64,000 bases of DNA from IMG/VR virus record IMGVR_UViG_644736323_000003, positions 1,012-65,011 of that record; one strand, written 5' to 3'. Positions 14,797 to 33,510 of this stretch are shown here, piece by piece; the first letter of the stretch is position 1, and every line of letters starts with the position of its first letter. The notes under the pieces are model-generated. The model was not told the DNA's origin. It worked only from the letters and a program-made list of their open reading frames with translations, and ran no database searches. Source of the DNA: a virus. Taxonomy: Duplodnaviria > Caudoviricetes. The translations under genes were made by a program, and so were the position numbers.

Positions 14797-14832
14797 CCGG
14801 AACCCCTTGAACACCAACGGAAGGCGTGACAC

Positions 14833-15735: not shown

Positions 15736-15749
15736 CCGCGAGGAGAACC

Positions 15750-17349: not shown

Positions 17350-18093
17350 GTGAACTACCAGCTCCCCCCACCGGCAGGTTTCGGCAACTGCAACGGGTGC
17401 GCCTACTTCGCCTCAGGGCCACCTCAGATCTGCCAGCAGTGTGCCTCGGAAACACTCGAACCGGCCGCACCGTGGTACTGCAGAGTGTGCGGCCAGCGTG
17501 TTGTCACGGAGCAGGACCGGTGCACCAACCGACTGTGCTCCGACCCTGGACGCCAGTTCGAGTTCAACCAGGCCATAGCCATGAAGACCGGCGCCCTTGA
17601 CACGGCAATCAAAGCGCACAAGTACTCCGGGCAGTGGGGATGGGGGATCATCTTCGCTCGTGTGCTCCTCGGGTACCTTGCGCGTGATCCTCGGGCAGCA
17701 GGCGCGGACTTGATCATCCCCATGCCGTCACGCCCGCTGCCGCCCGGCATCACCACCCGCAAAGGACACGACCACGCTGGCTGGATCATTGAATCAGCAG
17801 CGACCCAGGACGACAGGTACCCGTTCCGCTTCGCACCACCGGTGCTAATCAAGACACGGGACACCGAGCGCATGGTCTCCACCCGCGGCTACGCAGAACG
17901 CTGCACTCTGTCCAACGACATCTACAACGCGCTCCAAGTGCTCGACCCAGCCGCCGTGCACGGAGCCACGGTGGCAGTGGTCGACGACGTGTTCACCACG
18001 GGCAACACCCTCAATGCCGTGGCGCGTCGACTCCGCGAAGCCGGAGCCCGTGCCGTACGGGGCTTGACGCTCGCACGTGCCCCCTACCGCTAA
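17350..18093 (+). CDS. ComF-like phosphoribosyltransferase with N-terminal zinc ribbons (ShosT-like)
   Basis: CNGC, CQQC, CRVC, CTNRLC; PRPP loop VAVVDDVFTTGNT; C-terminal VRGLTLAR. Confidence 0.88.
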   Translation: MNYQLPPPAGFGNCNGCAYFASGPPQICQQCASETLEPAAPWYCRVCGQRVVTEQDRCTNRLCSDPGRQFEFNQAIAMKTGALDTAIKAHKYSGQWGWGIIFARVLLGYLARDPRAAGADLIIPMPSRPLPPGITTRKGHDHAGWIIESAATQDDRYPFRFAPPVLIKTRDTERMVSTRGYAERCTLSNDIYNALQVLDPAAVHGATVAVVDDVFTTGNTLNAVARRLREAGARAVRGLTLARAPYR

Positions 18094-18194: not shown

Positions 18195-18389
18195 CTACCG
18201 GTCCATCGTCGGGTTGGGGTCGACGACGTCGCAGGAGGACGGGCTGCTGTCCGGCCACGACAGGTCGCCGTGCCGGTGGTGCCCAGCGTGCTCGCTGGTG
18301 AGCAAGCACCGCAGGGTGGGGCCGTCAGGCACGAGGTAGCAGGTCTGGCAGGTACCGCGTGGAGCCATCCAGGGGATGATGCTGGGCAT
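18195..18389 (-). CDS. Small Cys/His hypothetical protein
   Basis: TGATG coupling to the upstream gene. Confidence 0.4.
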   Translation of the reverse strand: MPSIIPWMAPRGTCQTCYLVPDGPTLRCLLTSEHAGHHRHGDLSWPDSSPSSCDVVDPNPTMDR

Positions 18390-19144
18390 CAGCTGTCCTC
18401 TCCGTAGGTGATCGCGAGGACGACCGCGGCGGCGTCGTCCACGGCGCGGTCTGGATCGTCGAGCGGCGCCGCCTGCCCGGCCGCCACCAGCTCTTCGGCC
18501 AGCGCCTGCGGCTCACCGCCGAGCTGCGTCCCCCGTTTCTCCAGCTCGGCACCGCCGAGCCGGACGCCGTTGCTGGTGAGCACCAGCGCGGCCGGGCTGG
18601 CGTCCTGCCCGCGCAAAGCCGTCCACGCGATCGTGGAGACCGAGGCGTGGGCTAAGCCGAGCAGCACGTAGGAGTCGAGCGCGGTCATGACGGGCAGCGC
18701 CTCCAGCGCGGCCCGGCTGGTGGCGGTGATGGTCGACCCGGCCAGCGCGTGTCGCACCCACTGGCCAACCACTTGGGCGGGCGTCAGCCGCAGCAGCTCG
18801 CCGCGCTCGGGGTACCAAGCGTGCGCGGCGACCTGCCCGGCGGTCGCTACCTCCACCCGTCCGTCCAGCCCCACGGACACCACCGCCGCCGTGGCGTTCG
18901 GCGAGCCGGGGTAGGCCGGGACGGTGTCCGCTGCGGCGAGCAGACCGGCCTGAGCGTCCCGGTGCGCGGCCACGATCGCCGCGACCTCGGCCGCGCGCTG
19001 CGCGGTGCGCACCACCGCCGCGCTGTGGCCGATCCCGTCGACCAGCGCGGCGCCCGCGCCGAGCGGGGTCACCTCGACGTGCACGGCGTCGGCCAGCGGA
19101 CCGGCCTTCCCCTCGGCGAGGGCGGTCCCGTACGTGATCTTCAC
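18389..19144 (-). CDS. PP2C/SpoIIE-fold phosphatase-like protein with altered metal ligands
   Basis: AALVDGIGH, NATA, TAGQ (usually AGD), LTSNG (usually SDG), DDAAAV. Confidence 0.7.
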   Translation of the reverse strand: MKITYGTALAEGKAGPLADAVHVEVTPLGAGAALVDGIGHSAAVVRTAQRAAEVAAIVAAHRDAQAGLLAAADTVPAYPGSPNATAAVVSVGLDGRVEVATAGQVAAHAWYPERGELLRLTPAQVVGQWVRHALAGSTITATSRAALEALPVMTALDSYVLLGLAHASVSTIAWTALRGQDASPAALVLTSNGVRLGGAELEKRGTQLGGEPQALAEELVAAGQAAPLDDPDRAVDDAAAVVLAITYGEDS

Positions 19145-19249
19145 GGTGTTCTCCTTCTCGATTCGGTGCGGTCGTGGACCAGCGTCGCGGCCGGTTGTTG
19201 GACCGGCGTTGGACCGGCGTTGGATGGGCGCGCGCCCGCTCCAGCGCGG

Positions 19250-19462
19250 TCAGGCGTCCAGGCTGTCCGGGGCGAGCTCGTCCGCCGCGTCGACCAGCGT
19301 CTGCGCGCACTGCTCCAGCAGTCCGCCGCCGAACCGGGCGACCAGGCTCGGCCGGGCCGCGTCGAGGCTGATGCCGCTCTCGACCAGGGTCTGGCGGAGC
19401 TGCTGCTCGGTGTCGAAGTACGCGCAGTCGTCGACGTTGCTGTAGTGGGTGGGGCAGGACAT
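19250..19462 (-). CDS. Small hypothetical protein
   Basis: AGGAGG RBS. Confidence 0.6.
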   Translation of the reverse strand: MSCPTHYSNVDDCAYFDTEQQLRQTLVESGISLDAARPSLVARFGGGLLEQCAQTLVDAADELAPDSLDA

Positions 19463-19507
19463 GGTGGTTCCTCCTGTGGTTGAGGGCGTGCGCGTGGTGG
19501 CGGTCGG

Positions 19508-20236
19508 TCAGGCGACGGGGACGCCGAGGCTGAGCAGCACGGCGAGGACGACGAACGCGGGGAACACGAGGCGCTGCTCGACCGGGCCGCCGGTGCGGAA
19601 CCGGAGCGGACGGGGCGGGCGGATCTCGTACCAGGTCTCCCCGGCGATGGGGATCGGCCAGAGGACGGGGCAGCCGGACAGGGTCAGGGCGTCCCCAAGG
19701 CAGTGCACCAGGCACCCGGTCCCCGCGGCGATCCCCAGCGGCCAGCCGATCCCCGCCAGGTCCCCAGGGAGATCCCCACCGCTGGTTCCCCAGAGGGCGA
19801 TCCCCGCGATCCCCGCGAGCGGGAGTACCCAGTCCCCAAGGGCGTCCCCGGCCAGTGCGATCCCCAGCAGCACGGTCCCCACCACGAACGGCGTTCCCCA
19901 CGCAGCGCTCCCCGCGCCGACCCCGATCCCCACGAGCACCGCGAACACGAGGGTGTGGGTGGCGTGACGGTGTTCCCCACGGTGCCGCTCGTCGCGGGGA
20001 CCTCGCGTGCGGGCGTAGAGCCAGCGGCTCCCCGCGCGCAGCGCCTGGGACAGCAGGCCGGTGACGGGGCCGAGGAGGCGGGAGGCGCGGGCGCCGGGGT
20101 GGTCGAGGTCGGGGACGAGGGCGAACCCGGCGGTGACCAGCGCCAGGACCACGGCCTGCGCGGTGGTGGTGGCGGTGAGCGGGGCGAGGGCGAGCCCGGC
20201 GCACAGGCCGGTGAGGGCGTGGGTGCGGCCCATCAT
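19508..20236 (-). CDS. Membrane-bound metal-dependent hydrolase (YdjM/YbcI-like)
   Basis: MMGRTHALTG, VPDLDHPG, HRHATH, HCLGDALT.SGCP.LWP; several TM segments. Confidence 0.85.
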   Translation of the reverse strand: MMGRTHALTGLCAGLALAPLTATTTAQAVVLALVTAGFALVPDLDHPGARASRLLGPVTGLLSQALRAGSRWLYARTRGPRDERHRGEHRHATHTLVFAVLVGIGVGAGSAAWGTPFVVGTVLLGIALAGDALGDWVLPLAGIAGIALWGTSGGDLPGDLAGIGWPLGIAAGTGCLVHCLGDALTLSGCPVLWPIPIAGETWYEIRPPRPLRFRTGGPVEQRLVFPAFVVLAVLLSLGVPVA

Positions 20237-20677
20237 GGGGATCGCCTCCAAGGGGATCGGGTGGGGGCGGGCGGCCCCAGGGCTGGGGTGGGGACTGGGG
20301 ATGGGTGCGAGGTGGGGAACCCGTGGGGATGCGCTCCCCGGCCAGCGGTGGGGACGGGGACTGGGGATCAGCGCCAGCGGCGGGAGCGGGTCCCCGCGCA
20401 GTAGGGGCACACCAGCCGGTCGTGGGGATCGGAGCGCCATCCCCGCTCGCGCAGCAGACCGAAGCTCCAGTCGACGTCCCCAGGGTCGGCGATCCGGAGT
20501 TCGATCGGGGTGCCGCATCCCCAGCCGCACTCGACGTGCCCGATCCCCAGCCGGTCCCCGTCGGGGTTGTGGTGGCGGCAGCGGGTCGCGTGCTCGTCCG
20601 ATCCCCACCCGTTCTTGTGGACCTGGATGATGTCGATCCCCGCGGTGCGTCCCCGGCGGATGGTGGCGGTGGGGATG
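19638..20677. repeat. Dense GGGGA/TCCCC motif array (core GGGGATC); candidate clt locus
   Basis: About 43 pentamers and 15 exact GATCCCC/GGGGATC heptamers in ~1 kb (hand count). Confidence 0.8.
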
Positions 20678-21102
20678 TGCTCGGGGTGGTGGTCGAGGTG
20701 GGTGCAGCGGAGGGTGAACACGTCGGCCTCGCGCAGCTCGGGTTCCGGCGGCTCCGCCGCGGCGGGCGGGGCGGCGGGTGCCGGAGACGGGGTGGACGGG
20801 GCCTGCGGAACCGGCGGCGGCGCGGGGGACTGCGGCGCGGGGTCCGGCACGACGGGGGCTGCGGGCTGCTGCACGACCGGCGGGTCGGGCACGACGCTGG
20901 GCGGCGCGGCGGGTGCCGAGGGGGCCTCGGGCGCGGCGCCGCGCTGCGGGGGTGCGGCTGCCGCGCTCTGCGGGGACGCGCTGGTCGGGGGCGGAGCGTC
21001 GCCGGGTGCCGGCTGCTGCGGGTCCGCGGGGTTGGGCTGCATCGCGTGCCAGATCAGGTAGCCGAACCCGGCCAGGACCAGGATGCCGAACAAGGTGCTC
21101 AC
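20368..21102 (-). CDS. Membrane-anchored Pro-rich protein with C-terminal Cys/His domain
   Basis: N-terminal TM LFGILVLAGFGYLIW; Pro/Ala linker; CGWGC, CPYC. Confidence 0.65.
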   Translation of the reverse strand: MSTLFGILVLAGFGYLIWHAMQPNPADPQQPAPGDAPPPTSASPQSAAAAPPQRGAAPEAPSAPAAPPSVVPDPPVVQQPAAPVVPDPAPQSPAPPPVPQAPSTPSPAPAAPPAAAEPPEPELREADVFTLRCTHLDHHPEHIPTATIRRGRTAGIDIIQVHKNGWGSDEHATRCRHHNPDGDRLGIGHVECGWGCGTPIELRIADPGDVDWSFGLLRERGWRSDPHDRLVCPYCAGTRSRRWR

Positions 21103-21365
21103 GTCTGCGGTCTCCGTAACTCTGTGTGCATGTTCGTCCGGTGAGATGCATGGGGGCCTGCATGGGCGGGCCCCGCAGTAGTGCGGGTGACATTTAGGCT
21201 GGTCAGAGCGGCGAAGCAGTCTGCCAGGCGACGCTGATACAGCTCATACATCTGATACATTTCCGCAGGTCGAGCGGCGTTTCTCATGCACAGCCCCATG
21301 CATCCGGCAGCCCCCGCCGTGTATGGGCGGCCTGCATGAAGTGCATGAGGGTCGACTACTCAGGG
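21103..21365. promoter_or_regulatory. Structured intergenic region directly downstream of traB
   Basis: Seven TGCATG/CATGCA-type hexamers, three 9-bp-period ATACA repeats, inverted arms. Confidence 0.55.
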
Positions 21366-23624
21366 TTACGACAAGGCGGTGCGGATGTCGGCCACGGTGG
21401 CGGACATCCCCTGCGCGCGGCGCACGGTCGGGAGCGTCCGGCCTGCGGCGCCCAGCTCGCCGGACAGCGCCCGCGCGCGCCGCCGCACCAGCTCGGTGTC
21501 GGCGCCCTCGGGCACGTACCCGGCCAGCCGGGCGAGGTCGCCCAGGGTCAGCCACTCGTCGTCCGGGCGCCCGGCCAGCTGCGCCAGCAGGACCGCGGCG
21601 ACCGGCTGGTCCAGGCGCGTCCTGCGGACCAGCCCCGCGACGGGGGCGGGAGGTGCAGCTGGCGGCGTAGGGGCGGGTGCTGCGGGGGTGACGGCGGACG
21701 GGAACTGCATCCGCGAATGGGTCGGCGCGTCCGGGCGTTCGGGTGCGCCGACGGAGGCGGGCGTGGGGGGTGCTTCACCGCGCATCAGCAGCGCCAGGCG
21801 CTCCAGCGACTCGGCGCGCGAGGCGGCGGCGGCGTCCTCACCGGCGTGCGGGAGCAGCCGCTCGGCGGCGGCGGCGGTAGGGCGCCAGCCCTCGATCCGG
21901 GGCAGGCCGACGTACAGGTCCTCGGCGTAGGGCGCGGGCTGGCTCGCGTGGTCCTCCCGGCGGGGCATGAAGTCGAGCTGCACCTGCATCTGGCGGGACT
22001 CCACGCCGCACATCAGCCCGCGGCCCTTGGTGTTGGGCAGCAGGTACGGGCTGTAGGGCAGGCCGGGGATCAGGTTCGCCGACGACTTGGAGTTGACCCG
22101 CATGGCCAGGAAGTTCCGGGTCGTCAGGCTGGAGCGGAGCATCTCGCTGCCGCCGAAGACCTCCTGGCCGGGGATCTGGCTGGCGGCGATGATGCCCATG
22201 TTGAGCTTGTTGATGCGCTTGGCCAGCGCGCCGAAGACGCCGCCGAGCGCGGCGAAGACCTGGTCGCACTCGTCGATGAAGGTCATGATCCCCGGCGGGA
22301 CGACGCCGCCGCACGGGCAGGCGGGGTCCGGGTGGGCGCCGTCGGGCAGGCACGGCGCGGTCGTCCAGGGGTTGATCTTGCCGAGGCGGTGGCTCTCCAT
22401 CCAGGTCTGCCGGTGGTCGGCCTCGACCGTGAGCCATCCGGCGAGGTCGGCGACGTGGTCGGCGGAGAGCACCGGGTAGTCGGCGTGCTCGGCCAGCACT
22501 GGGCTGGACGCGCCGCGCTGCGGGTCCATGAACGCGATCAGGTAGCCGAGCTGGCGGCACCGGTAGGCCAGCCCGTCGAACAGCGAGGACTTGCCCATGC
22601 GGGTGCCCGCGAGGACGAACCCGTTGTGCGCGCCGTCCGCCGAGGCGATGTCCCAGAACGCCGAGGTGCCGTCGTCGATATAGCCGCCGATGCGCACCGA
22701 GCAGGCGTTGTCCGGCGCGGAGACCAACTCGGGGGTGAAGCGGGCGCTGCTCATGGTGTGGGCCGCGCGCCGGATGATCTGCATGTGCAGCTGCCCGGTG
22801 TCCTCCAGCACCGGGTTGTCCTGGTCGAACACCAGCTCCTGCCCGCCGTTCTCGTCGGTGGGCAGCTTCAGCTTCAGGGCGCCGACCAGCTTGCCCAGCG
22901 CGAGGTTGGCGGCGTCGAGGGTGGTGCCGCTGTCCCCGGACTGGACCACGAACGACAACCGCCCCTGCCCGAGGTCCCTGGGGTTGACCAGTCGGGTGTC
23001 GGGCAGGTGCTTGACCGCGCCCGCCGCCCAGCGCTCGACGTAGACCTGGAGGTCCGCGGCCACGTCCACGACCTCCCCCTCGATGGCATCCTCGGCCGCC
23101 GTGGTCTCGCTCTCCTCGGCGGCGGTCAGTGCGGCGCGGGCGGCGCGGACCTGCCGCAGCAGCGCGCGCCGCGAGCGCCAGCGGGCCAGCTGCCAGCGGC
23201 CGGTGGAGACCACCACGGCCACCAGGTAGCCGCCCAGCACGATCGGCTCGCCGCCGAACAGGCCCAGCCCGGCGCCCGCCGTCGCCGCGCCGCCGAGCAC
23301 CTTGCGGACCGGCGGCAGGCCCTCGTGCAGCTCGGTGCCGTGCGCGGCGGCCAGCGCGAACCCGCTGGTGGCCAGGGAGGTGATCGCGCTGCCGCCGATG
23401 CCGATCAGCAGCATCGCGGCCCCGCCCTGCCCGAGGCTGGACATCATGTTCGCGTGCCACAGCAGCGGTCCGGTGGTGGCGGTGATGCCGACGGCGGCGA
23501 CGGGCATCGCGGCCACGCGCCGCTCGACGCGCAGTGCGCGGGCGACCTGCTCGGGGGTGAGGGGCTTGACGTCGTCGGGCTTGGCGGGCGGGGGCGCGGT
23601 GGGCCGCTGCTCCAGCTCGGTCAT
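21366..23624 (-). CDS. traB: TraB/TraSA-type FtsK/SpoIIIE conjugative DNA translocase
   Basis: GAGGAG RBS; N-terminal TM helices; Walker A LAGTRMGKSS; Walker B MTFIDECD; IAASQ; C-terminal wHTH-like domain. Confidence 0.85.
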   Translation of the reverse strand: MTELEQRPTAPPPAKPDDVKPLTPEQVARALRVERRVAAMPVAAVGITATTGPLLWHANMMSSLGQGGAAMLLIGIGGSAITSLATSGFALAAAHGTELHEGLPPVRKVLGGAATAGAGLGLFGGEPIVLGGYLVAVVVSTGRWQLARWRSRRALLRQVRAARAALTAAEESETTAAEDAIEGEVVDVAADLQVYVERWAAGAVKHLPDTRLVNPRDLGQGRLSFVVQSGDSGTTLDAANLALGKLVGALKLKLPTDENGGQELVFDQDNPVLEDTGQLHMQIIRRAAHTMSSARFTPELVSAPDNACSVRIGGYIDDGTSAFWDIASADGAHNGFVLAGTRMGKSSLFDGLAYRCRQLGYLIAFMDPQRGASSPVLAEHADYPVLSADHVADLAGWLTVEADHRQTWMESHRLGKINPWTTAPCLPDGAHPDPACPCGGVVPPGIMTFIDECDQVFAALGGVFGALAKRINKLNMGIIAASQIPGQEVFGGSEMLRSSLTTRNFLAMRVNSKSSANLIPGLPYSPYLLPNTKGRGLMCGVESRQMQVQLDFMPRREDHASQPAPYAEDLYVGLPRIEGWRPTAAAAERLLPHAGEDAAAASRAESLERLALLMRGEAPPTPASVGAPERPDAPTHSRMQFPSAVTPAAPAPTPPAAPPAPVAGLVRRTRLDQPVAAVLLAQLAGRPDDEWLTLGDLARLAGYVPEGADTELVRRRARALSGELGAAGRTLPTVRRAQGMSATVADIRTALS

Positions 23625-23686
23625 GGCGGTGCTCCTCGAACGGGCGGCCGGGACGGGCGGTGGCGTCCCGGCCGCGTGGATCGGGG

Positions 23687-24757
23687 TCAGAGGTTGGTGA
23701 CGGAGGACTTGCTGCCGGTGCCGGGGTTGGAGGCGTAGCCGTCGGCGACGTTGACCGACCCCTCCAGCGCGGACAGCCCGGTGGAGGTCGCGGCCTTCGC
23801 CGCGTCCAGGGCGGCCATCGCCGCGTCCAGGGCGGCAGCCGCTTCGCCCAGCGCGCTGCTGGCGGCGCCGAAGCGGTCGCGGGCGGAGCCGAGGAGGTCG
23901 GCGGCCTGCTCGAACGGCGCGACGCGGGGGCCGGACCAGTCCTGGCGGCGCATGTCGGCCACGGTGCCCTCGATCGCGATGATGCCTGCGGCGCAGTCGC
24001 TGGCCAGTCCGCCGACCTGGCTCTGGGTCTGCTCGGCCTCTCCTCGGTTCTGCTCCGCGGCCCTGACGCCGTTGCCGAGCGCGTTCAGGAGACCGCGGGC
24101 GAACTCCATGTACGAGCCGAGGCCGCCTTCGCCGCTGGCGACGGTGCCGCTGCTGCTGGAGCGGATGGCGGGGGTGGGCATGGGTCCTCCTGGTGGTGTG
24201 GTGCGGCGCGGGGGCGGAGTGCCCAGCGCGGTGGGCGGGACCGGCGGGATGCCGGGCGTCGGATCGGGGGGCGGGTCGCGGTCCAGGCGGGTGCTGGTGG
24301 CGCGGATCGGGGCGTGCGGTTCGTCGTGGCCGGGCCACGTCCACCAGCCGGTGGGCCAGCGGAAGAACTGGTCGAAGTAGCGCCGCCAGCCGTGGTCGCG
24401 CAGGGAGCGGCGCGGGCGGCGGCGGGCGTTGCGGGCGGCGCCGACCGCGTCGACGCCGGTCAGCCACAGCCACCGCAGCAGCGCCCGCGCCCGGCGCGCG
24501 CCTGCCGCCGCGTGCGGGCGGCGCAGGTAGTCCTGGCCGTCGCTGGTGCGCGGTTCGCCGGGCGGGGTGCGGCCTCCCATGCGGACGGAGACCGCGACCA
24601 GCACCTCGGCCGCGCGCGGGTGGCCGACCGCCGTGGCGAGGGTGGCGGTCCTGGTGGCGAACCACGCGCAGCAGGCGCACAGCACGGTGCGGGTGTCGCC
24701 CCAGAGCCGGTAGACCACGAACCAGGCGACGAGGAAGGCGAACAGGAACGGGCCCAT
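23687..24757 (-). CDS. Transfer-associated protein: N-terminal TM, Pro-rich linker, C-terminal coiled coil (internal start at 24181)
   Basis: One open frame; AGGAGG RBS before in-frame ATG24181. Confidence 0.55.
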   Translation of the reverse strand: MGPFLFAFLVAWFVVYRLWGDTRTVLCACCAWFATRTATLATAVGHPRAAEVLVAVSVRMGGRTPPGEPRTSDGQDYLRRPHAAAGARRARALLRWLWLTGVDAVGAARNARRRPRRSLRDHGWRRYFDQFFRWPTGWWTWPGHDEPHAPIRATSTRLDRDPPPDPTPGIPPVPPTALGTPPPRRTTPPGGPMPTPAIRSSSSGTVASGEGGLGSYMEFARGLLNALGNGVRAAEQNRGEAEQTQSQVGGLASDCAAGIIAIEGTVADMRRQDWSGPRVAPFEQAADLLGSARDRFGAASSALGEAAAALDAAMAALDAAKAATSTGLSALEGSVNVADGYASNPGTGSKSSVTNL

Positions 24758-25200
24758 CAGCCGGTCGCCCCGAAGAAGACGGCAAGCGGCTCGGCCAGCT
24801 CGCCCAGACTGGTCCTCAGCGAGGCCAGCCAGCCGGGCAGGACACCGGCGGTGGCGGCGCCGATCAGGATCGGGGCCGCCACGCCGAGGCCCATCGTGTA
24901 GTTCTTGATGCCGCCCTTGCCCTTGCGCGGGTCGGCCTCGATCACGAACGCGCCGAACAGGGCGAGACCGATCGTGCAGAGCACGACGTTGGCGTGGACG
25001 CCGAAGACGCTGCCGGTCGCGCCGCCCGCCTTGCGGAGCACCTCGTGCAGCGTGGCGATCAGCCCTCCGGTCAGGCAGACCGAGGCGACGCACGCCAACC
25101 AGCACTTGATCTTGGGGAGCTTCTTCTTCCAGTGCAGGACCGCGACCAGGACGATGCAGCTGAAGCCGAGCACTCCGGCACCGATAGCGCCAGCGGGCAT
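24757..25200 (-). CDS. Four-TM membrane protein (Spd-like)
   Basis: AAGG RBS; hydrophobic helices; ATGA overlap. Confidence 0.65.
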   Translation of the reverse strand: MPAGAIGAGVLGFSCIVLVAVLHWKKKLPKIKCWLACVASVCLTGGLIATLHEVLRKAGGATGSVFGVHANVVLCTIGLALFGAFVIEADPRKGKGGIKNYTMGLGVAAPILIGAATAGVLPGWLASLRTSLGELAEPLAVFFGATG

Positions 25201-25211
25201 GATCGTTTTCC

Positions 25212-26582
25212 TTACTCGTTGACGGCGTCGGAGCCGGGGGCGGGCGGGTTCTCGCGCACGTAGCGCGCCTTGAACTCGGTGAGCTTCTTCTTCAGGTGCG
25301 TCACCCCGAACTGCTTGTCGATCTGGGGGCCGGTCACGGACGCCGGGTCGCCGCCGCGCGCGCGGACCTGCTCCGCGTACCACTGGTAGGCGCGCTCGCG
25401 CAGGGAGTCCTCCCGGCGGAAGGCGGTGACGTTCGAGCGCTCCGGCGCGGTCTGCGCTCGGGCGGGCTCGGCCTCCTCGGCGGCGACCACGGGGGCGGCG
25501 GGGAGAGCAGGGCGCTCGGCCGGGGCCGGGATGCTCGACTGCTCCGGGGCGGGAGGCAGTTGGTCGGCGGACTTCTCCGCCGCAGCGGACTGCCGCTCGA
25601 CGCGCTCCGGCTTCCGCTTTCGCTCGGCGCGGGCCTGCGCGCGCTCGGCGTCCTCGGCGGTGATCACCTCGGTGGCCCGGTCCAGCGCGGTGGCCGCGTC
25701 CGGGATGCGGTCGGTGACCGCCGTGCGCCAGGCCGTCCAGGTGTGCCGGGGCGCGACCAGCCAGCGCGCTACGCCCAGCTCGGGCCGAGGCGGGATCGGC
25801 GTGGGCGCCCAGCCCAAGCGGGCGATCTCGGCGGCACGCCGGTCCCGGTCGGCCCGGTGCTCGCGCAGCTCCCAGCCCAGCACGGAGGCCACCGACAGCG
25901 CCGCGAAGATCACCCCCAATGTGGAGGGGGTCGACCAGCTCGGGGACCACTCGCGGTAGTTCACGGCCGAGGCGAACGCGACGATCGCCCACATCACGCC
26001 CCGGTAGAGCGCCGGGGAGTCCCCCCGCAACCGCGCCTTGTGCGCCAAGCGGGCCATGAACAGCCCCAGCGTCTCCAGGGTCAGGCCGATCGCGAACGCG
26101 ATGGCGAACGCCAGCGCGCTGACGTGCTCGGCGTCGACCCGCAGCTCCTGCTCCACGAATGGCACGAAGCGCGGGTGCAGGGCAGCGATCTGGCCGAACA
26201 TCGCGGCGGTGGTCCCGGACAGCAGTGGGATGGCCAGCACCGCCGCCCACAGCCGGTCGCCACGGTCGGTGGCCGTCACCTCCGGCGCCGGGACGTCGGG
26301 CCCCTCAGCCGGGACAGGCGGCGCGGTCAGGGCCTCGGTCTGCGCGCGCAGCAGCTCCACCCGCGCCTCGGCCTCGGCGCGCTCCAGCTCGCGCAGCCGC
26401 TTGTTGTGCTCGGCGGCGCGCGCGGCCTCGGCGCGGGCGACGTCGGCGATGGCGGCCTGGGCGCGGGTCACCTCGGCCTCGGCGGCGGCGCGCGTGCGGA
26501 TCGCGTCGGCCTGCGCGCGGGCCAGCAGGCGCCGGGCGTACCGGGTGGTCGGCTCGGGCGTCGGCGGGGGCGCGGTGTCCAC
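25212..26582 (-). CDS. SpdB2/DUF2637-like spread protein
   Basis: N-terminal coiled coil, four TM helices (...FASAVNYREW...), Pro-rich segment, basic C-terminal domain. Confidence 0.7.
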   Translation of the reverse strand: MDTAPPPTPEPTTRYARRLLARAQADAIRTRAAAEAEVTRAQAAIADVARAEAARAAEHNKRLRELERAEAEARVELLRAQTEALTAPPVPAEGPDVPAPEVTATDRGDRLWAAVLAIPLLSGTTAAMFGQIAALHPRFVPFVEQELRVDAEHVSALAFAIAFAIGLTLETLGLFMARLAHKARLRGDSPALYRGVMWAIVAFASAVNYREWSPSWSTPSTLGVIFAALSVASVLGWELREHRADRDRRAAEIARLGWAPTPIPPRPELGVARWLVAPRHTWTAWRTAVTDRIPDAATALDRATEVITAEDAERAQARAERKRKPERVERQSAAAEKSADQLPPAPEQSSIPAPAERPALPAAPVVAAEEAEPARAQTAPERSNVTAFRREDSLRERAYQWYAEQVRARGGDPASVTGPQIDKQFGVTHLKKKLTEFKARYVRENPPAPGSDAVNE

Positions 26583-26642
26583 AGGGGTTTCCTCTCTGGG
26601 CGGTGGGCCCGGCGCACGAGGCGCCGGGCCGGGTGGGGAAGG

Positions 26643-27311
26643 TCAGAGGCGGCGCAGCCGCAGGAACAGCCAGGCACCGACCAGGCCCTTGACGATCAGC
26701 TCCCCGTCGAGGGCGTAGGTCGGCACGACGAGGGCGTGCCAGACGGCCTGCCCGCACACGTAGGCCGCCATCCCGAGTAGGAGCACGTCCAGGAACCCGA
26801 CCAGCTCGCGCCCGGTCCACCGCAGCGCGGTGGCGGCCCGGCTCTTGAGCGACGGGGCGCAGGACGGGGTGCAGACGTGGGTCGAGGACTTCAGCCCTGC
26901 CACCGTGAGCGCCTCGTCCAGCAGGTCGGGGTCGCCGGGGTTGTCGGGGTGCCAGGCGGGCAGCCGGTCCAGCGGGAACCACTCGGCGTGCCCGCCCTCT
27001 GCCGGGGTCAGCTCGGGCAGCGCGCCCCGGTCGAGCACGCTCCACGACAGGGCGTCGGACTCCGGGCCGCGCAGCAGGACCGGGTTGAGGCGGTCGGCGC
27101 TGCTGTAGGTCAGGTGCAGGCCGGTGGTCTCGCGCAGCCGATCGGTCAGGTAGGACAGCGGCTGGACATCCAGCTCGCCGACGCCGGGCTTGTCGCCGGG
27201 CAGTCGCCATCCCTGCCCCGGCTCGTCCGTGATCAGCAGGACGTACAGGCGCTGGTGCCGGTCGTAGGCGAGCACGACCGCGGTGGCGGGGGGATTGATC
27301 ATCATGGTCAC
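26643..27311 (-). CDS. Degenerate NUDIX-fold protein with C-terminal TM segments
   Basis: VLLITDEPGQGWRLPGD...RLRETTGL; AEWFPLDRLP; two TM helices at the end. Confidence 0.55.
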   Translation of the reverse strand: MTMMINPPATAVVLAYDRHQRLYVLLITDEPGQGWRLPGDKPGVGELDVQPLSYLTDRLRETTGLHLTYSSADRLNPVLLRGPESDALSWSVLDRGALPELTPAEGGHAEWFPLDRLPAWHPDNPGDPDLLDEALTVAGLKSSTHVCTPSCAPSLKSRAATALRWTGRELVGFLDVLLLGMAAYVCGQAVWHALVVPTYALDGELIVKGLVGAWLFLRLRRL

Positions 27312-27379
27312 GGGAGGGCTCCTCTGTCAGTCGCGGCGCAGGACGCCGACGGCGTCGGCCAGGGCCTCGATCTCGTCGT

Positions 27380-27898
27380 TCACAGGCCCTCCGCCCCGAC
27401 CAGGAGCAGCTCCTCGCCGGCGGTCTTCGCGTAGCGGCGCCTGTCCTGGAGGCTGGAGAAGGACTGGGCCTCGCGGATGTCCTTGCAGGCGCCGACGGCG
27501 TTCTGGATCTCCATGCGCACGGCGTACGACGACAGCATGATCAGCCGGGCCTGCGGTGCCGAGAGCGCCGACCGAGCAGCGTGCGAGGCGGCTCGCGCCT
27601 CCGCGATCTGCTCGGCGGTGGGGTCGAGGTGGTCCACCCGGACGCCGTGGGCGTCCAGCTCGGCGCGCACGACCGCCGGGTCCTGGCCGCGGTCGAGCGC
27701 GGCCCGCACCAGCCGCAGGGACACCAGCACGAACATGCAGCGCCGGTAGTCCTCCAGCGCCCCGTGCAGCGCGGTGAACGCCAGCAGGCGCTCCTCGCGG
27801 CGGGCGCGGCGGTCCTGCACGCGGCCGGTGACGCGGACGGCGAGCAGGGTGCCCGCGACCGTGAGCATCTGGGTGGCGATGGCCTGCACGGTGTTCAC
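27380..27898 (-). CDS. Hypothetical protein with N-terminal TM
   Basis: GGAGG RBS; GTGA overlap. Confidence 0.55.
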   Translation of the reverse strand: MNTVQAIATQMLTVAGTLLAVRVTGRVQDRRARREERLLAFTALHGALEDYRRCMFVLVSLRLVRAALDRGQDPAVVRAELDAHGVRVDHLDPTAEQIAEARAASHAARSALSAPQARLIMLSSYAVRMEIQNAVGACKDIREAQSFSSLQDRRRYAKTAGEELLLVGAEGL

Positions 27899-28392
27899 GA
27901 CGCCTCCAGCGGGCCACGCACGTGCGGCGGGTGGAGCAGCGCGTCGGCGTCGAGCGCGATCCGCTCGTGGTCGAACGCCCACCGCAGCTCGGCGTCGCGC
28001 AGCTCGGCGCCGCTGAACCAGCGCGCCTCGGCGGCGTCGTCGCCGCCGATGACCGGCGGGCAGTCGGGCAGCACGATCCCGTAGGCGGCGGAGACGTAGC
28101 GGCCCCGCGGGTCGCGGCCGACCTGGTCGTAGACGCCGACCAGGCTCAGCGTGGCGTCCTCGCGCAGGTCGAGGTTGAGGCCGGTCTCCTCGGCCAGCTC
28201 GCGCACCGCGGCGTCGCGGGCGGTCTCGTCCCGGTCGACGTGGCCGCCGGGCAGCGCCCAGCAGCCGGGGTAGGCGTCGCAGTCGTCGGCGCGGCGGACC
28301 AGCAGCAGTCGCGGCTGGCCCTCGTCGGTGCCGAACACCACGGTGTCGGCGGTGTAGCGGATGGTGGGCTCGCGGCCCTCGGTGTCGGTCAT
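27895..28392 (-). CDS. NUDIX hydrolase (MutT-like; pSAM2 Pif/Nud-type context)
   Basis: WALPGGHVDRDETARDAAVRELAEETGL; RDPRGRYVS; GDDAAEARWF. Confidence 0.92.
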   Translation of the reverse strand: MTDTEGREPTIRYTADTVVFGTDEGQPRLLLVRRADDCDAYPGCWALPGGHVDRDETARDAAVRELAEETGLNLDLREDATLSLVGVYDQVGRDPRGRYVSAAYGIVLPDCPPVIGGDDAAEARWFSGAELRDAELRWAFDHERIALDADALLHPPHVRGPLEAS

Positions 28393-28483
28393 GCTCTCGG
28401 TCCCCTGTCCGACCTGGCTGGGTTGGTGGATCACGTGCCCCGGCGGGGCCACCCCCGCGTGGGCGGGGAAACGCAGTGCCAGG

Positions 28484-28750
28484 TCAGAAGTCGCGGCCCC
28501 GCTTGCAGGCACCGGTGGCGATCTCGACGACGAACATCTCGTCCTCGGGGTAGTCGGCGAGCTGGATCTGCGCGTCCTCACGGTCGCGGGCCGGGCTGCC
28601 GTGGGCGACGCCCCACGCCTCCTTGTTGAGCGCGGTGTCGAGCTGGTCGCCCTTGGCGAAGCCGACCCCGTACCGGTAGTCCTCGCCGTGCTGGCGGGAC
28701 TCCTTGGTGATGGCGGCGGTGACCTTGGCGATGTCGTTCGCGTTCAGCAC
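28484..28750 (-). CDS. Small hypothetical protein
   Basis: GAGGAG RBS. Confidence 0.6.
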   Translation of the reverse strand: MLNANDIAKVTAAITKESRQHGEDYRYGVGFAKGDQLDTALNKEAWGVAHGSPARDREDAQIQLADYPEDEMFVVEIATGACKRGRDF

Positions 28751-28825
28751 GGTGTTCTCCTCGGGTTGGGGTTGCTGGTGCCCTCGGGATCGGAGCGCCC
28801 CCGCACAGGGCGGGGACGGGGTGCG

Positions 28826-29089
28826 CTAGTCGGCGTCGATCGCCATGAGGTGCTTGTCCTCGCCGCCGATGTGGATCGCGGCGGCGTGGTCGGCGTCGGT
28901 GAGGACCTTGCGGTTGGAGTCCGGGGCCAGGTGGATCTGGCCGGTGCGCAGCAGTCCGCGCAGGACCGCGTCCTGCTCGTCGCGGCTGCCGGGCAGCAGA
29001 GGGCGCAGGGTGCGCAGCGGCACCCAGTCCTGGATCTTGACGGAGAGCTTCTGGTAGGCGTCCCGGACGGCGTTCTCGATGGCGGACAT
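28826..29089 (-). CDS. Small hypothetical protein, possibly winged helix
   Basis: GAGAGGA RBS; WVPLRTLRPLL...LLRTGQIHL. Confidence 0.6.
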   Translation of the reverse strand: MSAIENAVRDAYQKLSVKIQDWVPLRTLRPLLPGSRDEQDAVLRGLLRTGQIHLAPDSNRKVLTDADHAAAIHIGGEDKHLMAIDAD

Positions 29090-29301
29090 CGACGGTCGGT
29101 TCCTCTCGTGGTCAGGCGTTGCAGGTGGCGATGAACCCGTCGATGCCGCCGTCGTGGTGGCGGGCGACGGCACGGGTGATCTCTGCGTCGGTCATGGCGT
29201 CGAAGTCGAGCTCGGCCGAGTTGGGGTCCAAGTCCTCGGCCCACGAGCAGTCGGCCAGCCAGGCGCGGTCGGCGGCGAGCTCCTCGTCGGTGAGTAGGGG
29301 T

Positions 29302-30243
29302 TCACCGGGTGTCGTTCTGGGGCAGCAGGTTGGCGTCGGCGGGCATGGTGTGGGCGTCGACCTGGCCGAGGGTCATGCAGCGCAGGTCGGCGTCCTGCTG
29401 CATGACCGGGGCGGTGTCGAGCAGCCACGCACCCACGGCGACGAGGAACACGCGGGTGACGGCGTCGCTGCCCTTCTTCATGTGCGGGGCCTGGAAGAGC
29501 AAGAACCTGCTGGTGCGCCAGGCGGCGAGCCGGTCGGCGTGACCGCCGGTTGCGGCGGCGTCGGCGAGGGTCTGCAGGGCGGCCTCGCGCATGGTGTCGC
29601 GGTCCGCGTGGTCGGCGGTGATCGCGTAGACCGGGTCGGAGTCCTGGCCGGTGTCGAACCTGCTGGTGTCCAGGCCGCGCGAGCGGAGGCGCTCGATCAG
29701 CTCAGCGGCGAGTTCGCGGGCGCGCTCGCCACGCACGAGGCTGTTGCCGACGACGCGGCGCCCGTCGGGCAGCCGGACCTCGGTGTGAAGCTCGTCGACC
29801 CCGGCCGCCTGGAGGCGGGCGCGGGCGATCGCCCCGTAGTGCTCCATGATCCGGCTGGCCGGGGTGGGCTCGCCGTCTACGTAGGAGTGGGAGGCCTCGT
29901 CCCAGCGGGGGTTGACTGGCATCCGGCCGATCGCGCCGAGCCGGTCGTAGTTCGCGCCCGCGCTGCTGATGGTGGTCATGAACCGGGCGGCGTCGCCGTC
30001 GACACCGTGGCCGCCGCGCGGGTCGCCGTGCCCCTTGGCCAGTCGCCACCTCCAGGCGTGCAGTTCGTCGAGGAGGTCACCGAGCGTCCGGGCGGTGACT
30101 GTGTTCAGGCGCAGGTAGCGGCGGGGGATGGTGTTCGCGGCGTGGGCCTGGTGCTCGGCGAACTCGCTCACGGCGGCGGTCTGGGCGGGGTCGTTGGACC
30201 GGAGCGCGAGGTGCGGCGTCGGGAACGAAGCGGCGGTGATCAA
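29302..30243 (-). CDS. Hypothetical protein with a Fido/AvrB-like C-terminal motif
   Basis: GAGGAG RBS before TTG; LLFQAPHMKKGSDAVTRVFL. Confidence 0.5.
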   Translation of the reverse strand: MITAASFPTPHLALRSNDPAQTAAVSEFAEHQAHAANTIPRRYLRLNTVTARTLGDLLDELHAWRWRLAKGHGDPRGGHGVDGDAARFMTTISSAGANYDRLGAIGRMPVNPRWDEASHSYVDGEPTPASRIMEHYGAIARARLQAAGVDELHTEVRLPDGRRVVGNSLVRGERARELAAELIERLRSRGLDTSRFDTGQDSDPVYAITADHADRDTMREAALQTLADAAATGGHADRLAAWRTSRFLLFQAPHMKKGSDAVTRVFLVAVGAWLLDTAPVMQQDADLRCMTLGQVDAHTMPADANLLPQNDTR

Positions 30244-30319
30244 GCGGTGCTCCTCGGGATGGTTGGAACCCGGCCGGGACGGGGAGGTCGGGGGTGCTCG
30301 ACCCGTCCCGGCCGGGAGA

Positions 30320-30478
30320 TCAGCGGGAGCATCCGGCGTTGAAGCAGGGCGCGCAGTAGGGCTCCTGCTCCTTCCGGATGCTTGCGCCGCAGGCGTAGCA
30401 GGAGCCCTGGGGTGCGGTGGTGCAGTCGAAGCACCTGGTGCCCTCGCACGGCTTGTTGCAGGCCTCGCAGTTCTTCAT
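30320..30478 (-). CDS. 52-aa protein with 10 Cys (absent from the ORF track)
   Basis: AAGGAAG RBS; MKNCEACNKPCEGTRCFDC...CYACG...CAPCFNAGCSR. Confidence 0.6.
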   Translation of the reverse strand: MKNCEACNKPCEGTRCFDCTTAPQGSCYACGASIRKEQEPYCAPCFNAGCSR

Positions 30479-30522
30479 CTGACGACTTCCTTAGTGCGGG
30501 CGCTCTGCCCGCTTCGCGGAAT

Positions 30523-30729
30523 TCAGGTGCGGACGGCGTCGCGGCAGCGGGCGATGTACCGGTCGGCCTCCGAGCGGGTTATCCGGTAGGTGCCCCGGCC
30601 CTTGCCAACACGGATGGCGTCGATCTCGCCCCGCTGGATGGCACGGCAGATCGTGCTGCTCACCACCCCCGCCTCGCGGGCCAGCTGGACCGACGAGATC
30701 CGCATCTCGTGTTCGTCAGGGGGTGACAT
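30523..30729 (-). CDS. Excisionase-family HTH protein
   Basis: SSVQLAREAGVVSSTICRAIQRGEIDAIRVGKGRGTYRITRSEADRYI. Confidence 0.8.
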   Translation of the reverse strand: MSPPDEHEMRISSVQLAREAGVVSSTICRAIQRGEIDAIRVGKGRGTYRITRSEADRYIARCRDAVRT

Positions 30730-30743
30730 CTGCGCTCCGTTCG

Positions 30744-30825
30744 AGTGCCCTAGGGCAATTGCCCTAGGGCACTGTAGCCGGCAGATGCAGGAGATGCCAC
30801 AGATGCAGGGAAGTGCTCTAGAGAG
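30744..30825. promoter_or_regulatory. Operator region between xis-like and gntR genes
   Basis: Perfect 30-bp palindrome 30744-30773 made of two TGCCCTAGGGCA; weaker TGCTCTAGAGAG at 30814-25. Confidence 0.8.
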
Positions 30826-30845
30826 ATCACTCATATGCTGTAGCC

Positions 30846-31646
30846 GTGGCAGCAGACACCAGCGGAAACTCGGCACAGCGCATCGCCCAGGACCTACTGG
30901 CGGCGATCGAGCGTGGTGAGTACGCGCCAGGCCACCAACTGCCCAGCCAGAACGTCATCAAGGCCCGGTACGGGGTGGCAGCCCAGACGGTGCAGAACGC
31001 CTTCGCGCTGCTGCATCAGCAGGGCGTGACCGAGGGGCGTCACGGCGCGGGCACGTTCGTGCGCGAGCACCGCCCGACCGTCGTCATCCCCATCGACCAC
31101 TCGGTGTACCGCGACGACCGCGGCTACTACTTCGGTCGTGCCACCCAGTCCTATGACCTGATCGGGAAGCCGAGCGTCACGGTCGGCCGCGCGCCGCAGC
31201 AGGTTGCCCAGCGCCTGAGCGTGCCTTCGGGCAGTTCGGTCGTGGTGCGCCACCGGGTGCTCGGCACCGCCGGGGAGGGCGGGCAGCCGGGGCAGATCGC
31301 CACCTCGTACCTGCCCGGCTGGCTGGCCGAGGAGTTGCCGGTGGTCGGCGAGGCGTCGACGGGGTCCGGCGGGATCTACGACCGGATCGAGGAGTGGGCG
31401 GGCGGCCCGTTGTCGTGGCCCACGCCCAGGTACGGGGCGGTGCCTGCCTCGGCGGAGGACGGGACGAGCCTGCGGGTCGCGCCGGGCACTCCGTTGCTGA
31501 CGCGGTACCGCGTCGCGGTCCTGCCCGACGGCCGCCCGGTGGAGCTGAACGTCACCCGTTGGCCGGGCAGCCGCTACGAGTTCGAGGCTGGTGACGTTGT
31601 CCGTGATGAGTCGGCCGCGTGGCCGACCGCACCTTTGCGGCCGTAG
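30846..31646 (+). CDS. GntR-family repressor (KorA/KorSA/TraR-like, UTRA domain)
   Basis: IAQDLLAAIERGEYAPGHQLPSQ...YGVAAQTVQNAF.LL...G.GTFVR; HutC-type C-terminal domain. Confidence 0.92.
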   Translation: MAADTSGNSAQRIAQDLLAAIERGEYAPGHQLPSQNVIKARYGVAAQTVQNAFALLHQQGVTEGRHGAGTFVREHRPTVVIPIDHSVYRDDRGYYFGRATQSYDLIGKPSVTVGRAPQQVAQRLSVPSGSSVVVRHRVLGTAGEGGQPGQIATSYLPGWLAEELPVVGEASTGSGGIYDRIEEWAGGPLSWPTPRYGAVPASAEDGTSLRVAPGTPLLTRYRVAVLPDGRPVELNVTRWPGSRYEFEAGDVVRDESAAWPTAPLRP

Positions 31647-31786
31647 TTCGTCAGCGCGGACGAACCCGCGCTGAGCGGCGCTGCGAGCACAGCTCCGTCA
31701 CAGGCAGTCCTCATCAGGTGGATACCCGACACGGCTGGCCTAGCCTCCGGTCAGCCGATCCCCATCCGCCCTGGGAGGCAACCCCG

Positions 31787-31969
31787 ATGCAGCCTGCTCT
31801 CACCCCCGCTGTCGCCGCCGCCGTCGAGGCACGCCTCGACGCGCGCGCCAAGGAGATCCGCCTGGTCGCGATCAGCGACGCCGCCGCCTGGCTCGAGAGC
31901 GAAGGCTTCGCCGCCGCCGCCACGCACCTGGCGCGGCACCGCGAGCGCGTTCCCGTCGCCGCCCGGTAG
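31787..31969 (+). CDS. Small hypothetical protein
   Basis: GGAGG RBS. Confidence 0.5.
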   Translation: MQPALTPAVAAAVEARLDARAKEIRLVAISDAAAWLESEGFAAAATHLARHRERVPVAAR

Positions 31970-31975
31970 CCCGCC

Positions 31976-32617
31976 GTGCTGCCCGAGGAGTGGGCACCGT
32001 GCGCCACCCCGCCCTGCGCCGAGCGACCGGTTCCCCCGGCCGCCGCCGAGGGGATGCGGGTGTGCGCGCGGTGCGCGACGAGGCTGGGTGAGGACTGCAC
32101 GGCGATCCCCGACCTGTGGGCGCCGTGGTGTGGGTCGCAGGCGCTGCTGCCGCGCCGCTCCGCCGGCGGTGGTGGGCGGCGTGGGCCGGGGTTCGCGTCG
32201 GCCCCGCCGGTGGACCTGGCGCTGGTGGCGATGCGGGACGTGCGCACCTCGTGGTCCGAGCCGGGGGATCTGCTGCACCCGCAGCGGGCGCTGGCGGAGG
32301 TGGCGGCCAAGGTGCTCGCCGAGGGCGCGGGCACCGTGCGGGCGCTGGCATCGCTGGGGGTGGCGGAGTCCTGCGAGGTGATCGGCCGGGGCCGCCTGCA
32401 CCGGTGGGCGCTGGCCCAGAACTGGGCCGGGGCGGCGTGCCTGACGGTCCGGCTGGTGCGGCAGCAGCTCGGCGCGCTCGACCACGAGCCCCGCCCGCGC
32501 CCGGTGGGCTTCTGCGACTGCGGGGGCGCGCTGTGGCTGACCGGGGCGACCGTGACGTGCCGGACGTGCCGGACCGAGCGCTCGGGGTTCGGACTGCTCG
32601 GGCTGGCGACGTCATGA
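31976..32617 (+). CDS. Zn-binding phage protein typical of the pre-packaging region
   Basis: CATPPC, CARC, GFCDCGG, CRTC. Confidence 0.6.
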   Translation: MLPEEWAPCATPPCAERPVPPAAAEGMRVCARCATRLGEDCTAIPDLWAPWCGSQALLPRRSAGGGGRRGPGFASAPPVDLALVAMRDVRTSWSEPGDLLHPQRALAEVAAKVLAEGAGTVRALASLGVAESCEVIGRGRLHRWALAQNWAGAACLTVRLVRQQLGALDHEPRPRPVGFCDCGGALWLTGATVTCRTCRTERSGFGLLGLATS

Positions 32618-33349: not shown

Positions 33350-33510
33350 CCGCGTTCCCCGACAACTCTCGCCACCTCGTGAGGGGGCGATCATGGACGA
33401 TTGGGAATTTGACATGTTGATGGATGACATCTTCGACATGTTGATCATCCTTGGTTCGTCCGCTCTGATGGCCGCCCTCATCTGGTGGGTACTCTCCCTG
33501 GAGGGCAACT

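Follow-up and report, generated by a model that had tools for sequence, protein, structure and literature searches.

The plasmids pIJ101 and pSVH1 carry a single membrane-anchored FtsK-like pump with a C-terminal winged helix-turn-helix (wHTH) domain and, next to it, an operon of small membrane proteins. In such systems traB and traR form a Kil-Kor pair, clt regions contain direct 8-bp repeats that are read by the cognate TraB, and for Spd homologues encoded by actinophages a possible part in the spread of phage DNA has been suggested (Thoma et al. 2015, PMC4447253). Integrative and conjugative elements of actinomycetes (AICEs) measure 9-24 kb, encode RepSA, RepAM or Prim-Pol and carry no virion genes (te Poele 2008, PMC2440964; Ghinet 2011, PMC3218068). 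The closest precedent that includes a phage is pZL12/phiZL12, a Streptomyces plasmid-phage with a characterised conjugal transfer locus, for which transfer is reported to require one main tra gene together with two genes next to it (Zhong et al. 2010, J Bacteriol 192:3747, as cited in PMC3583192). Here we present a transfer-type cassette in a tailed prophage, found in a 64,000-nucleotide stretch of DNA (positions 1,012 to 65,011 of IMG/VR record IMGVR_UViG_644736323_000003, hereafter the window). It consists of a leftward operon at 18195-30705 and a divergent GntR/UTRA gene, located between the early and late genes of the phage. The cassette is very probably an integral, conserved part of the phage and homologous to plasmid Tra systems.

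The first-pass annotation of the window knew of no characterised case of such an arrangement, which was overstated given the transfer locus of pZL12/phiZL12. The pZL12 record (GQ919031) contains a gene for a 725-amino-acid (aa) FtsK/SpoIIIE-like protein, membrane protein genes and a divergent GntR gene beside virion genes. Both are tailed-phage genomes with an actinomycete transfer-type locus. However, pZL12, which has been treated as a singleton, is maintained in Streptomyces outside the chromosome as a 90-kb ParAB plasmid-prophage, while the present element is integrated at tRNA-Leu with an integrase and att sites, belongs to a Pseudonocardiaceae-type host and is part of a multi-member lineage. 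A likeness also exists to the isolated Streptomyces phages Hiyaa (NC_048139), Geonosis, Jaresh and AndoPrime, whose genomes encode an FtsK-like ATPase, but the FtsK/SpoIIIE-like protein of Hiyaa is only marginally similar to the TraB family of the element.

With pIJ101 and pSVH1 the element shares the type of pump, including profile homology to pIJ101 Tra, the adjacent operon of small membrane proteins and the short direct repeats near traB, in the element a candidate recognition locus; in pIJ101, with the order tra-spdA-spdB-kilB, a GntR gene is likewise divergent from tra. Unlike these plasmids, it has no plasmid Rep, its cargo is a complete phage, its pump fails to match PF01580 (FtsK_SpoIIIE), its DUF2637, YdjM and Cys-rich proteins are not demonstrably SpdA or SpdB homologues, and it possesses two repeat arrays, one of which is embedded in coding sequence. 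With AICEs such as pSAM2, SLP1 and pMEA300 it has in common a tRNA-targeting tyrosine integrase, an Xis, a GntR regulator (KorSA-type in AICEs), a Tra translocase and prophage-like maintenance. pSAM2 carries a NUDIX gene (Pif), as does the element of the present strain. However, the element is 66 kb long and includes a full virion module, and neither Prim-Pol nor RepAM was found in it. A published AICE screen would have missed it, since PF01580 and a Rep protein were required (Ghinet 2011, PMC3218068).

The candidate pump is a 752-aa ATPase, a putative TraB-like double-stranded DNA translocase of the FtsK family. It contains the Walker A motif GTRMGKSS and the Walker B motif TFIDECD; its sequence gave no match in Pfam, NCBIfam, PHROGs or PDB sequences. 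An AlphaFold2 model built on 28 homologues (predicted local confidence, pLDDT, 81.7) starts with long hydrophobic helices, continues with a core of the RecA type and closes with a winged helix at the C-terminus; the helices at residues 24-173 carry hydrophobic Gly/Ala-rich segments and the wHTH occupies residues 675-751. Foldseek placed FtsK motor domains on top (E 7e-13, TM-score 0.64-0.70), followed by TcpA of pCW3 and EccC, and the family profile matched HerA (3e-4) and a FadR-type wHTH (E 0.007) among PDB sequences. In hhalign comparisons with pIJ101 Tra (KilA), which itself matches PF01580 at 9e-10, a narrow profile (A1) reached a probability of 88% and a profile of 47 sequences (A2) 97.6% (E 4.2e-12) over 407 columns, from the pre-ATPase domain through the wHTH. 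Profile A1 gave less than 10% against the single sequences pZL12.71c, a 657-aa protein of S. pogona and Hiyaa gp102, a result that is uninformative rather than negative. Given the FtsK-motor fold, the profile alignment to pIJ101 Tra and the same gene logic as in pIJ101, we accept the ATPase as a divergent member of the actinomycete Tra/TraB superfamily. Motifs, model and Foldseek thus agree with the first-pass annotation, which had described an FtsK-family ATPase with transmembrane anchors, Walker A/B motifs and a C-terminal wHTH and had related it to TraB; its view of the whole cassette as TraB/TraR-like is also supported.

An exhaustive profile search showed that the ATPase family comprises 846 clusters at 50% identity, with 345 of them at E 1e-30 or better. 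PF01580 was matched by only 4 of the 47 members sampled, and surveys based on this model would therefore miss the family. Neighbours of the ATPase in the ESM Atlas are actinobacterial clusters of 650-790 aa, some with FtsK_SpoIIIE or FtsK_gamma. With the ATPase as tblastn query, no close relative turned up in the 50,697 deposited phage records, and the plasmid matches were limited to three from Pseudonocardiales that are about 30% identical. A search of 401 genomes of the order, run with a stricter filter, gave distant matches only.

TraB homologues at 43-51% identity were found on contigs of 57-92 kb, four of which are IMG/VR viral contigs with a CheckV completeness of 74-100%, two being circular assemblies. 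Four relatives (G401 to G404) were compared whole, gene by gene, with the window element. In G401 (58 kb), G402 (57.5 kb) and the circular assembly G403 (60.5 kb, CheckV 100%) the integrase, early genes, cassette and late genes follow the collinear order of the window, and the cassette occupies an identical slot in all three. Related prophages thus do keep it at the same position, against the refuting case named by the first-pass annotation, in which close phage relatives would all lack it. Protein identities in these collinear relatives are 49-51% for TraB, 72-75% for YdjM, 55% for the tape measure protein (TMP), 34-55% for the integrase and 23-35% for portal and large terminase subunit (TerL). 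YdjM is the most conserved protein of the cassette and of the whole set of elements (72-75% in relatives vs 43-51% for TraB), even though array 2 runs through its gene. The core is kept in at least eight related phage-like genomes or contigs; in G404, L003, L019, L047, L048 and L049 it lies beside tail, lysin, antirepressor, WhiB or other phage-type genes. The shared order is GntR / HTH_17 ... DUF2637-like, a protein with three transmembrane segments (3-TM), one or two small proteins, TraB, the Cys-rich anchored protein and YdjM. None of the core open reading frames (ORFs) is broken, and the cis arrays have been retained.

These data bear on the alternative of a separate AICE, now decayed, or a piece of a plasmid that landed in the prophage and is passively carried by it. 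Such an origin would fit the lack of an Int and Rep of its own, the variation of the accessory genes among relatives and the presence of several classical AICE-type Tra and Rep loci elsewhere in the genome. We nevertheless regard it as very improbable, because the core keeps its position across collinear genomes whose proteins have drifted apart to 23-55% identity, its proteins are conserved as much as the head genes or more, and its ORFs and arrays have been preserved. Furthermore, no direct or inverted repeats of at least 15 bp link the cassette flanks and no second integrase, Prim-Pol or RepAM was detected in the element (RepSA was not searched for), in line with the first-pass annotation, which had seen no second integrase, RepSA/Prim-Pol gene or flanking direct repeat. 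Elsewhere in the genome both Prim-Pol and RepAM are present, accompanied by classical small Tra genes. The AICE-type loci of the host genome (G000:C1 188529-191794, 1023573, 1233577, 1425168 and 7452933) include a RepAM (DUF3631) with an FtsK_SpoIIIE gene 2-3 kb away as well as several PF01580 proteins of 520-590 aa; the host thus also carries ordinary AICEs.

Two of the relatives are of further interest. G402 is a Saccharothrix coeruleofusca contig of 57,518 bp, whose end (57467-57518) lies inside a tRNA-Leu att core that is 94% identical to that of the window. This suggests that the assembly broke at att, possibly with integrated and excised forms coexisting in the culture. The early arm of G402 encodes a ParB_N protein. 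G404 is an 84,441-bp circular assembly with a 99-bp terminal overlap, in which the cassette core is accompanied by GntR, the methylase and genes of TMP-like and holin-like type, the holin-like one being 74% identical. No integrase homologue was found in G404, and it may therefore be a plasmid-prophage form of the lineage.

Control of the cassette appears to follow the plasmid pattern. The GntR/UTRA protein, 32% identical to pZL12.80 and also present in G402, G404, L003, L048 and L049, is probably the TraR/KorA analogue of a putative transfer operon. The divergent promoter region contains a perfect 30-bp palindrome (30744-30773) built of two TGCCCTAGGGCA units, followed by three AGATGC repeats with a 9-bp period (30780-30810); the equivalent promoter of G402 has two copies of CGTACTGGTACG plus AGTTGCAGG repeats. 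The first operon gene encodes the Xis-like protein that the first-pass annotation had listed, with 41% identity to its G402 counterpart; the HTH_17 match is weak in the window (2.5e-4) and clearer in the homologues of L003, L048 and L049.

Third-position GC calling and Pfam confirmed that the leftward operon and the divergent GntR gene are real. The three membrane proteins encoded upstream of traB (23687-26582) have homologues in G401-G404, and so does the anchored Cys-rich protein (44-58% identity). On a Saccharopolyspora plasmid, as in phage Hiyaa, DUF2637 adjoins Tra-like genes. The three distal genes (18195-19462) are not conserved in relatives. Between the Xis-like gene and the DUF2637 gene lie strain-variable accessory genes, among which the Fido-like gene (45% identity) and the 87-aa ORF at 28826-29089 have homologues in G401 only, and the others, NUDIX included, have none in G401-G404. 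The 313-aa protein was considered as a candidate Rep and rejected; in the ESM Atlas it resembles clusters of the AvrB_AvrC/Fic type (score 0.96, with 208 features shared), and it is absent from G402 and G403. Of the NUDIX proteins announced by the first-pass annotation one was verified, the product of the neighbouring 172-aa gene not being NUDIX-like. Calling the cassette complete was too strong, since it has no Rep and counts the NUDIX and Fido-like genes among its strain-specific accessories.

In an unbiased scan for clustered k-mers, the most clustered 7-mers of the window element, G402 and G403 were all located within about 1.7 kb downstream of traB. Array 1 comprises seven TGCA-core repeats (five exact CATGCA), a further three of the form GTAT(C/G)A and a GACCTGCGGAAA box that is conserved. 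In all nine relatives examined a terminator hairpin is followed at this position by arrays, often in a 3+3 inverted arrangement, with the units TGTTGCAG, ATGCAAGCTTGCAT, GCTTTGCA or TGATGCA; an inverted repeat TGACCTGCGGAAA...TTTCCGCAGGTCA is conserved there in most of them. The predicted recognition-helix class of the TraB wHTH matches the array-1 unit in 10 of 10 members. Helices of class R-A-R/I-A-R go with TGTTGCA, GEVQxAxR with GCTTTGCA, EVKVAAA with (C)ATGCA(AG) and LVRxRA with (G)ATGCA. Between L015 and L019 the ATPase core is 92% identical but the wHTH only 64%, and their repeat units differ. Conversely, the window protein and that of L047 are distant in the ATPase core but paired in the wHTH tree, and they share the helix type and GATGCA-like units.

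Array 2 covers the Cys-rich gene at its 3' end, the following spacer and much of ydjM. It is the densest GGGGANC cluster in the 8.25-Mb genome (16 per 400 bp vs a mean of 0.4, the next locus having 8) and is found at the same offsets in G401, G403 and G404, while its place is taken by 17 copies of GGGTACC in G402 and by GCTACCC in L003. In ydjM 58% of the Gly codons are GGG vs 26% elsewhere in the element, and in G402 the Gly codons GGT and GGA are raised in place of GGG. The YdjM residues of G402 at the motif positions change from Gly-Ile to Gly-Thr, in step with GGGATC to GGTACC. Array 2 reflects DNA-level selection on a switchable motif. It was rejected as a wHTH target, given that G401 and G402 share the recognition helix and differ in the array-2 motif. 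More distant family members also have repeat clusters near the Tra-like gene, usually upstream of it. The candidate cis sites sit where a clt would be expected, and array 1 is the better candidate for TraB docking.

The same repeats could be explained by a replication origin, a partition site or an operator array, with the FtsK-like protein acting in segregation, exclusion or another phage-host interaction, such as superinfection exclusion or as a defence moron, and exporting no DNA. The combination of iterons and inverted repeats fits the architecture of origins, the 8-bp repeats bound by RepAM lie within the RepAM gene, the promoter region has TGCA-type repeats as well, no other replication gene is recognisable in the element, and the NUDIX protein matches a PADLOC candidate model. 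On the other hand, the pump aligns over both translocase and wHTH to a proven conjugative Tra, and the set of membrane proteins together with the GntR layout is of the transfer-operon type. Regarding defence, the PADLOC scan of ten cassette proteins gave only this generic NUDIX candidate, the other nine having no defence match, and the NUDIX gene lies outside the conserved core; the defence reading was therefore set aside. Overall, we consider this group of explanations improbable.

We lean instead towards a module that moves the phage genome between hyphae or compartments. In a lysogen, GntR bound to the palindromic operator would hold the operon low. Once repression is relieved, Xis and Int would excise a 66-kb circle, and the membrane-anchored TraB would dock on its cognate repeats, for which array 1 is the better candidate. 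TraB would then pump this circle, as double-stranded DNA, either into an adjacent hypha or through septal cross-walls, assisted in a Spd-like manner by the DUF2637, YdjM and Cys-rich membrane proteins, and Int would integrate the circle at the attB of the recipient. GntR repression, excision, DNA binding by the wHTH and intercellular transfer are steps that we infer from the sequence. During infection, this machinery might just as well distribute replicating phage DNA within the mycelium.

A number of observations weigh against this mechanism. No replication function could be identified in the element, and classical AICEs need one for transfer. The ATPase did not match PF01580 at E 0.01 or in a six-frame genome scan, and it has no significant similarity to the FtsK-like protein of pZL12, none being detectable beyond the P-loop. 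pIJ101 SpdB gave no match to DUF2637, so that DUF2637 is not supported as an SpdB; the Spd-like membrane proteins of the first-pass annotation hold as to position and topology, on which the label rests, and lack homology support. No GntR or Xis is recognisable in G403. Array 1 may be an operator rather than a clt, because TGCA-type repeats are also present in the gntR-xis promoter, and array 1 and the wHTH-coding 3' end of traB, being adjacent on the DNA, could be swapped by a single recombination tract with no functional link between them. Finally, the usual reading of FtsK-like genes in isolated Streptomyces phages assigns them to development or replication.

The main rival holds that the module acts inside one mycelium, moving replicating or excised phage DNA across septal cross-walls or into spore compartments and so giving intramycelial spread or segregation, with no donor-to-recipient conjugation. 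Such a role has been proposed for SpdB2 homologues on actinophages, and plasmids too are spread within the mycelium by TraB and Spd proteins (Thoma et al. 2015, PMC4447253). In Hiyaa about 2 kb separates the gene of a DUF2637 membrane protein from an FtsK/SpoIIIE-like gene, other isolated Streptomyces phages carry FtsK-like genes, and G404 keeps the core without an integrase homologue. However, GntR control of the Kil-Kor type and the Xis-like first gene couple the operon to excision of the lysogen and not to lytic growth, and since plasmid TraB machinery performs both tasks, one role does not preclude the other. An exclusively intramycelial module appears to us rather unlikely. Beyond transfer by a single element, we tentatively propose, as possible rather than probable, a multi-member lineage of integrating actinophages in Pseudonocardiaceae and relatives that spreads in a dual mode, either as virions or as naked double-stranded DNA pumped by TraB through hyphal contacts. 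Its specificity would reside in an exchangeable wHTH and array unit recombining between phages, with array 2 serving as a loading or orienting track.

The coordinates of the features are listed in Table 1. Genes in the window were called by third-position GC, since it is high-GC actinomycete DNA; they lie on the plus strand from 1 to about 18.1 kb, on the minus strand at 18195-30705 and on the plus strand at 30846-62198.

Table 1. Features of the prophage element in window coordinates, with the evidence or a remark for each.
Feature	Position	Strand	Evidence or remark
attL copy of 41-bp core	-2366 to -2326		blastn; 2.3 kb left of window
Early arm	1-16118	plus	mostly proteins of no recognisable family; HNH endonuclease and C5 methylase
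HNH endonuclease	3373-3720	plus	early arm
C5 methylase	10377-11807	plus	early arm
Three distal genes (64, 251, 70 aa)	18195-19462	minus	phrog_5650, function not assigned
YdjM-family membrane hydrolase	19508-20251	minus	Pfam YdjM 5e-23
Array 2	19649-20641		28 GGGGANC heptamers
N-anchored Cys-rich protein	20368-21102	minus	Pro-rich linker, conserved Cys/His-rich C-terminal domain
Array 1	21103-21365		263-bp spacer directly after traB stop; candidate clt or operator
TraB-like FtsK-family putative double-stranded DNA translocase, 752 aa	21366-23624	minus	Walker motifs, fold, profile
N-anchored 356-aa protein	23687-24757	minus	hydropathy
3-TM protein	24757-25173	minus	hydropathy
DUF2637 membrane protein	25212-26582	minus	Pfam DUF2637 1.6e-40
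Strain-variable accessory genes	26643-30243	minus	Fido-like, two small ORFs, NUDIX, 172-aa and 222-aa proteins
NUDIX protein	27895-28452	minus	Pfam 1.6e-20
AvrB/Fido-like protein, 313 aa	29302-30243	minus	ESM Atlas look-alikes
Xis-like HTH_17 protein, first operon gene	30523-30705	minus	Pfam HTH_17 2.5e-4, below cut-off
Divergent promoter region	30744-30810		palindrome and AGATGC repeats
GntR/UTRA (HutC-type) regulator	30846-31646	plus	Pfam GntR 1.4e-13, UTRA 3.6e-16
Virion and lysis module	38694-61556	plus	PHROGs; Pfam Terminase_7
Small terminase subunit (TerS)	38694-39146	plus	PHROGs/Pfam
TerL	39143-40756	plus	PHROGs/Pfam
Portal	40767-42191	plus	PHROGs/Pfam
Maturation protease	42188-43231	plus	PHROGs/Pfam
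Major head protein (MCP)	44128-45486	plus	PHROGs/Pfam
TMP	49753-53868	plus	PHROGs/Pfam
Minor tail proteins	53879-57640	plus	PHROGs/Pfam; Dit-like protein also identified in module
Endolysin	59488-60501	plus	PHROGs/Pfam
Tyrosine integrase	62258-63490	minus	Pfam Phage_int_M, Phage_int_SAM_3, Phage_integrase
attR core	63581-63621		41-bp perfect direct repeat = 3' end of tRNA-Leu(caa)
tRNA-Leu(caa)	63581-63657	minus	ARAGORN

The prophage measures 65,988 bp between the att cores, and the window up to 63621 lies wholly within it. When the tRNA region was compared by blastn with 300 kb of the genome, the 41-bp core had one extra perfect copy and no third. In a genome of the same genus (G214) attB is empty, the left and right flanks, 96-100% identical to the host genome of the element, being contiguous there with an overlap of 44 bp; the 65,988-bp stretch is thus a precise insertion at attB in tRNA-Leu. 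The integrase ORF, of lower GC than the rest, adjoins tRNA-Leu(caa). Packaging, head, tail and lysis genes follow in canonical order at 38.7-61.6 kb, and the apparently complete head/tail/lysis set of the first-pass annotation was confirmed for TerS, TerL, portal, protease, MCP, TMP, minor tails and endolysin. The element thereby has the features of a temperate siphovirus-type prophage with an Int predicted to target tRNA-Leu.

The early-arm homologues are collinear in G401, G402 and G403, and library scans of the proteins of the element recognised no replication gene. Two paralogous early genes (8758-9825 and 11834-12511) flank the C5 methylase gene and share 114 nucleotides at 84% identity (9255-9368 and 12199-12312) as well as further repeats. 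A LexA box of the perfect actinobacterial pattern TCGAACAGACGTTCGA, the sole such site in the window, is located at 16363-16378, 10 nucleotides ahead of a low-GC two-gene unit that encodes DprA (16389-17333) and a zinc-ribbon phosphoribosyltransferase (17350-18093). A 589-aa GDSL lipase/acylhydrolase-domain protein (34302-36071) is encoded between the GntR gene and the terminase genes.

Expression was assessed on RNA contigs from three rRNA-depleted runs (X5-X7) of one study. In all three runs the longest contigs with the highest depth covered the DprA-phosphoribosyltransferase pair (16.2-18.9 kb), and contigs also extended over gntR and downstream genes from 30783 to 35000, with the GDSL gene in the same contig. 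The cassette was covered by short, low-depth contigs only. This is weakly compatible with a repressed operon and no more than a hint, because contig depth cannot rank genes. Run X2, with a 24-kb contig of flat depth and single-nucleotide polymorphisms, was set aside as probably DNA of a near strain.

With respect to the known systems, the integrated state, with Int, att and tRNA-Leu, is new. The module also belongs to the conserved backbone of an entire phage lineage in hosts of the Pseudonocardiaceae type, its Tra family is divergent and missed by Pfam, and its two arrays come with evidence of exchangeable specificity. Surveys of AICEs and Tra proteins that depend on Pfam miss about 850 clusters (50% identity) of TraB-like pumps, and the pairs of wHTH and array 1 would, if the module works as proposed, provide a natural specificity series for the reading of DNA by FtsK-like pumps. 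The host strain is culturable and non-pathogenic and has a complete genome. If the proposed mechanism is true, temperate phages of mycelial actinomycetes would spread without lysis and without a receptor, and the line between prophage and AICE would be blurred. Host range, immunity and gene flow in mycelial actinomycetes, that of biosynthetic clusters included, would then need other models.

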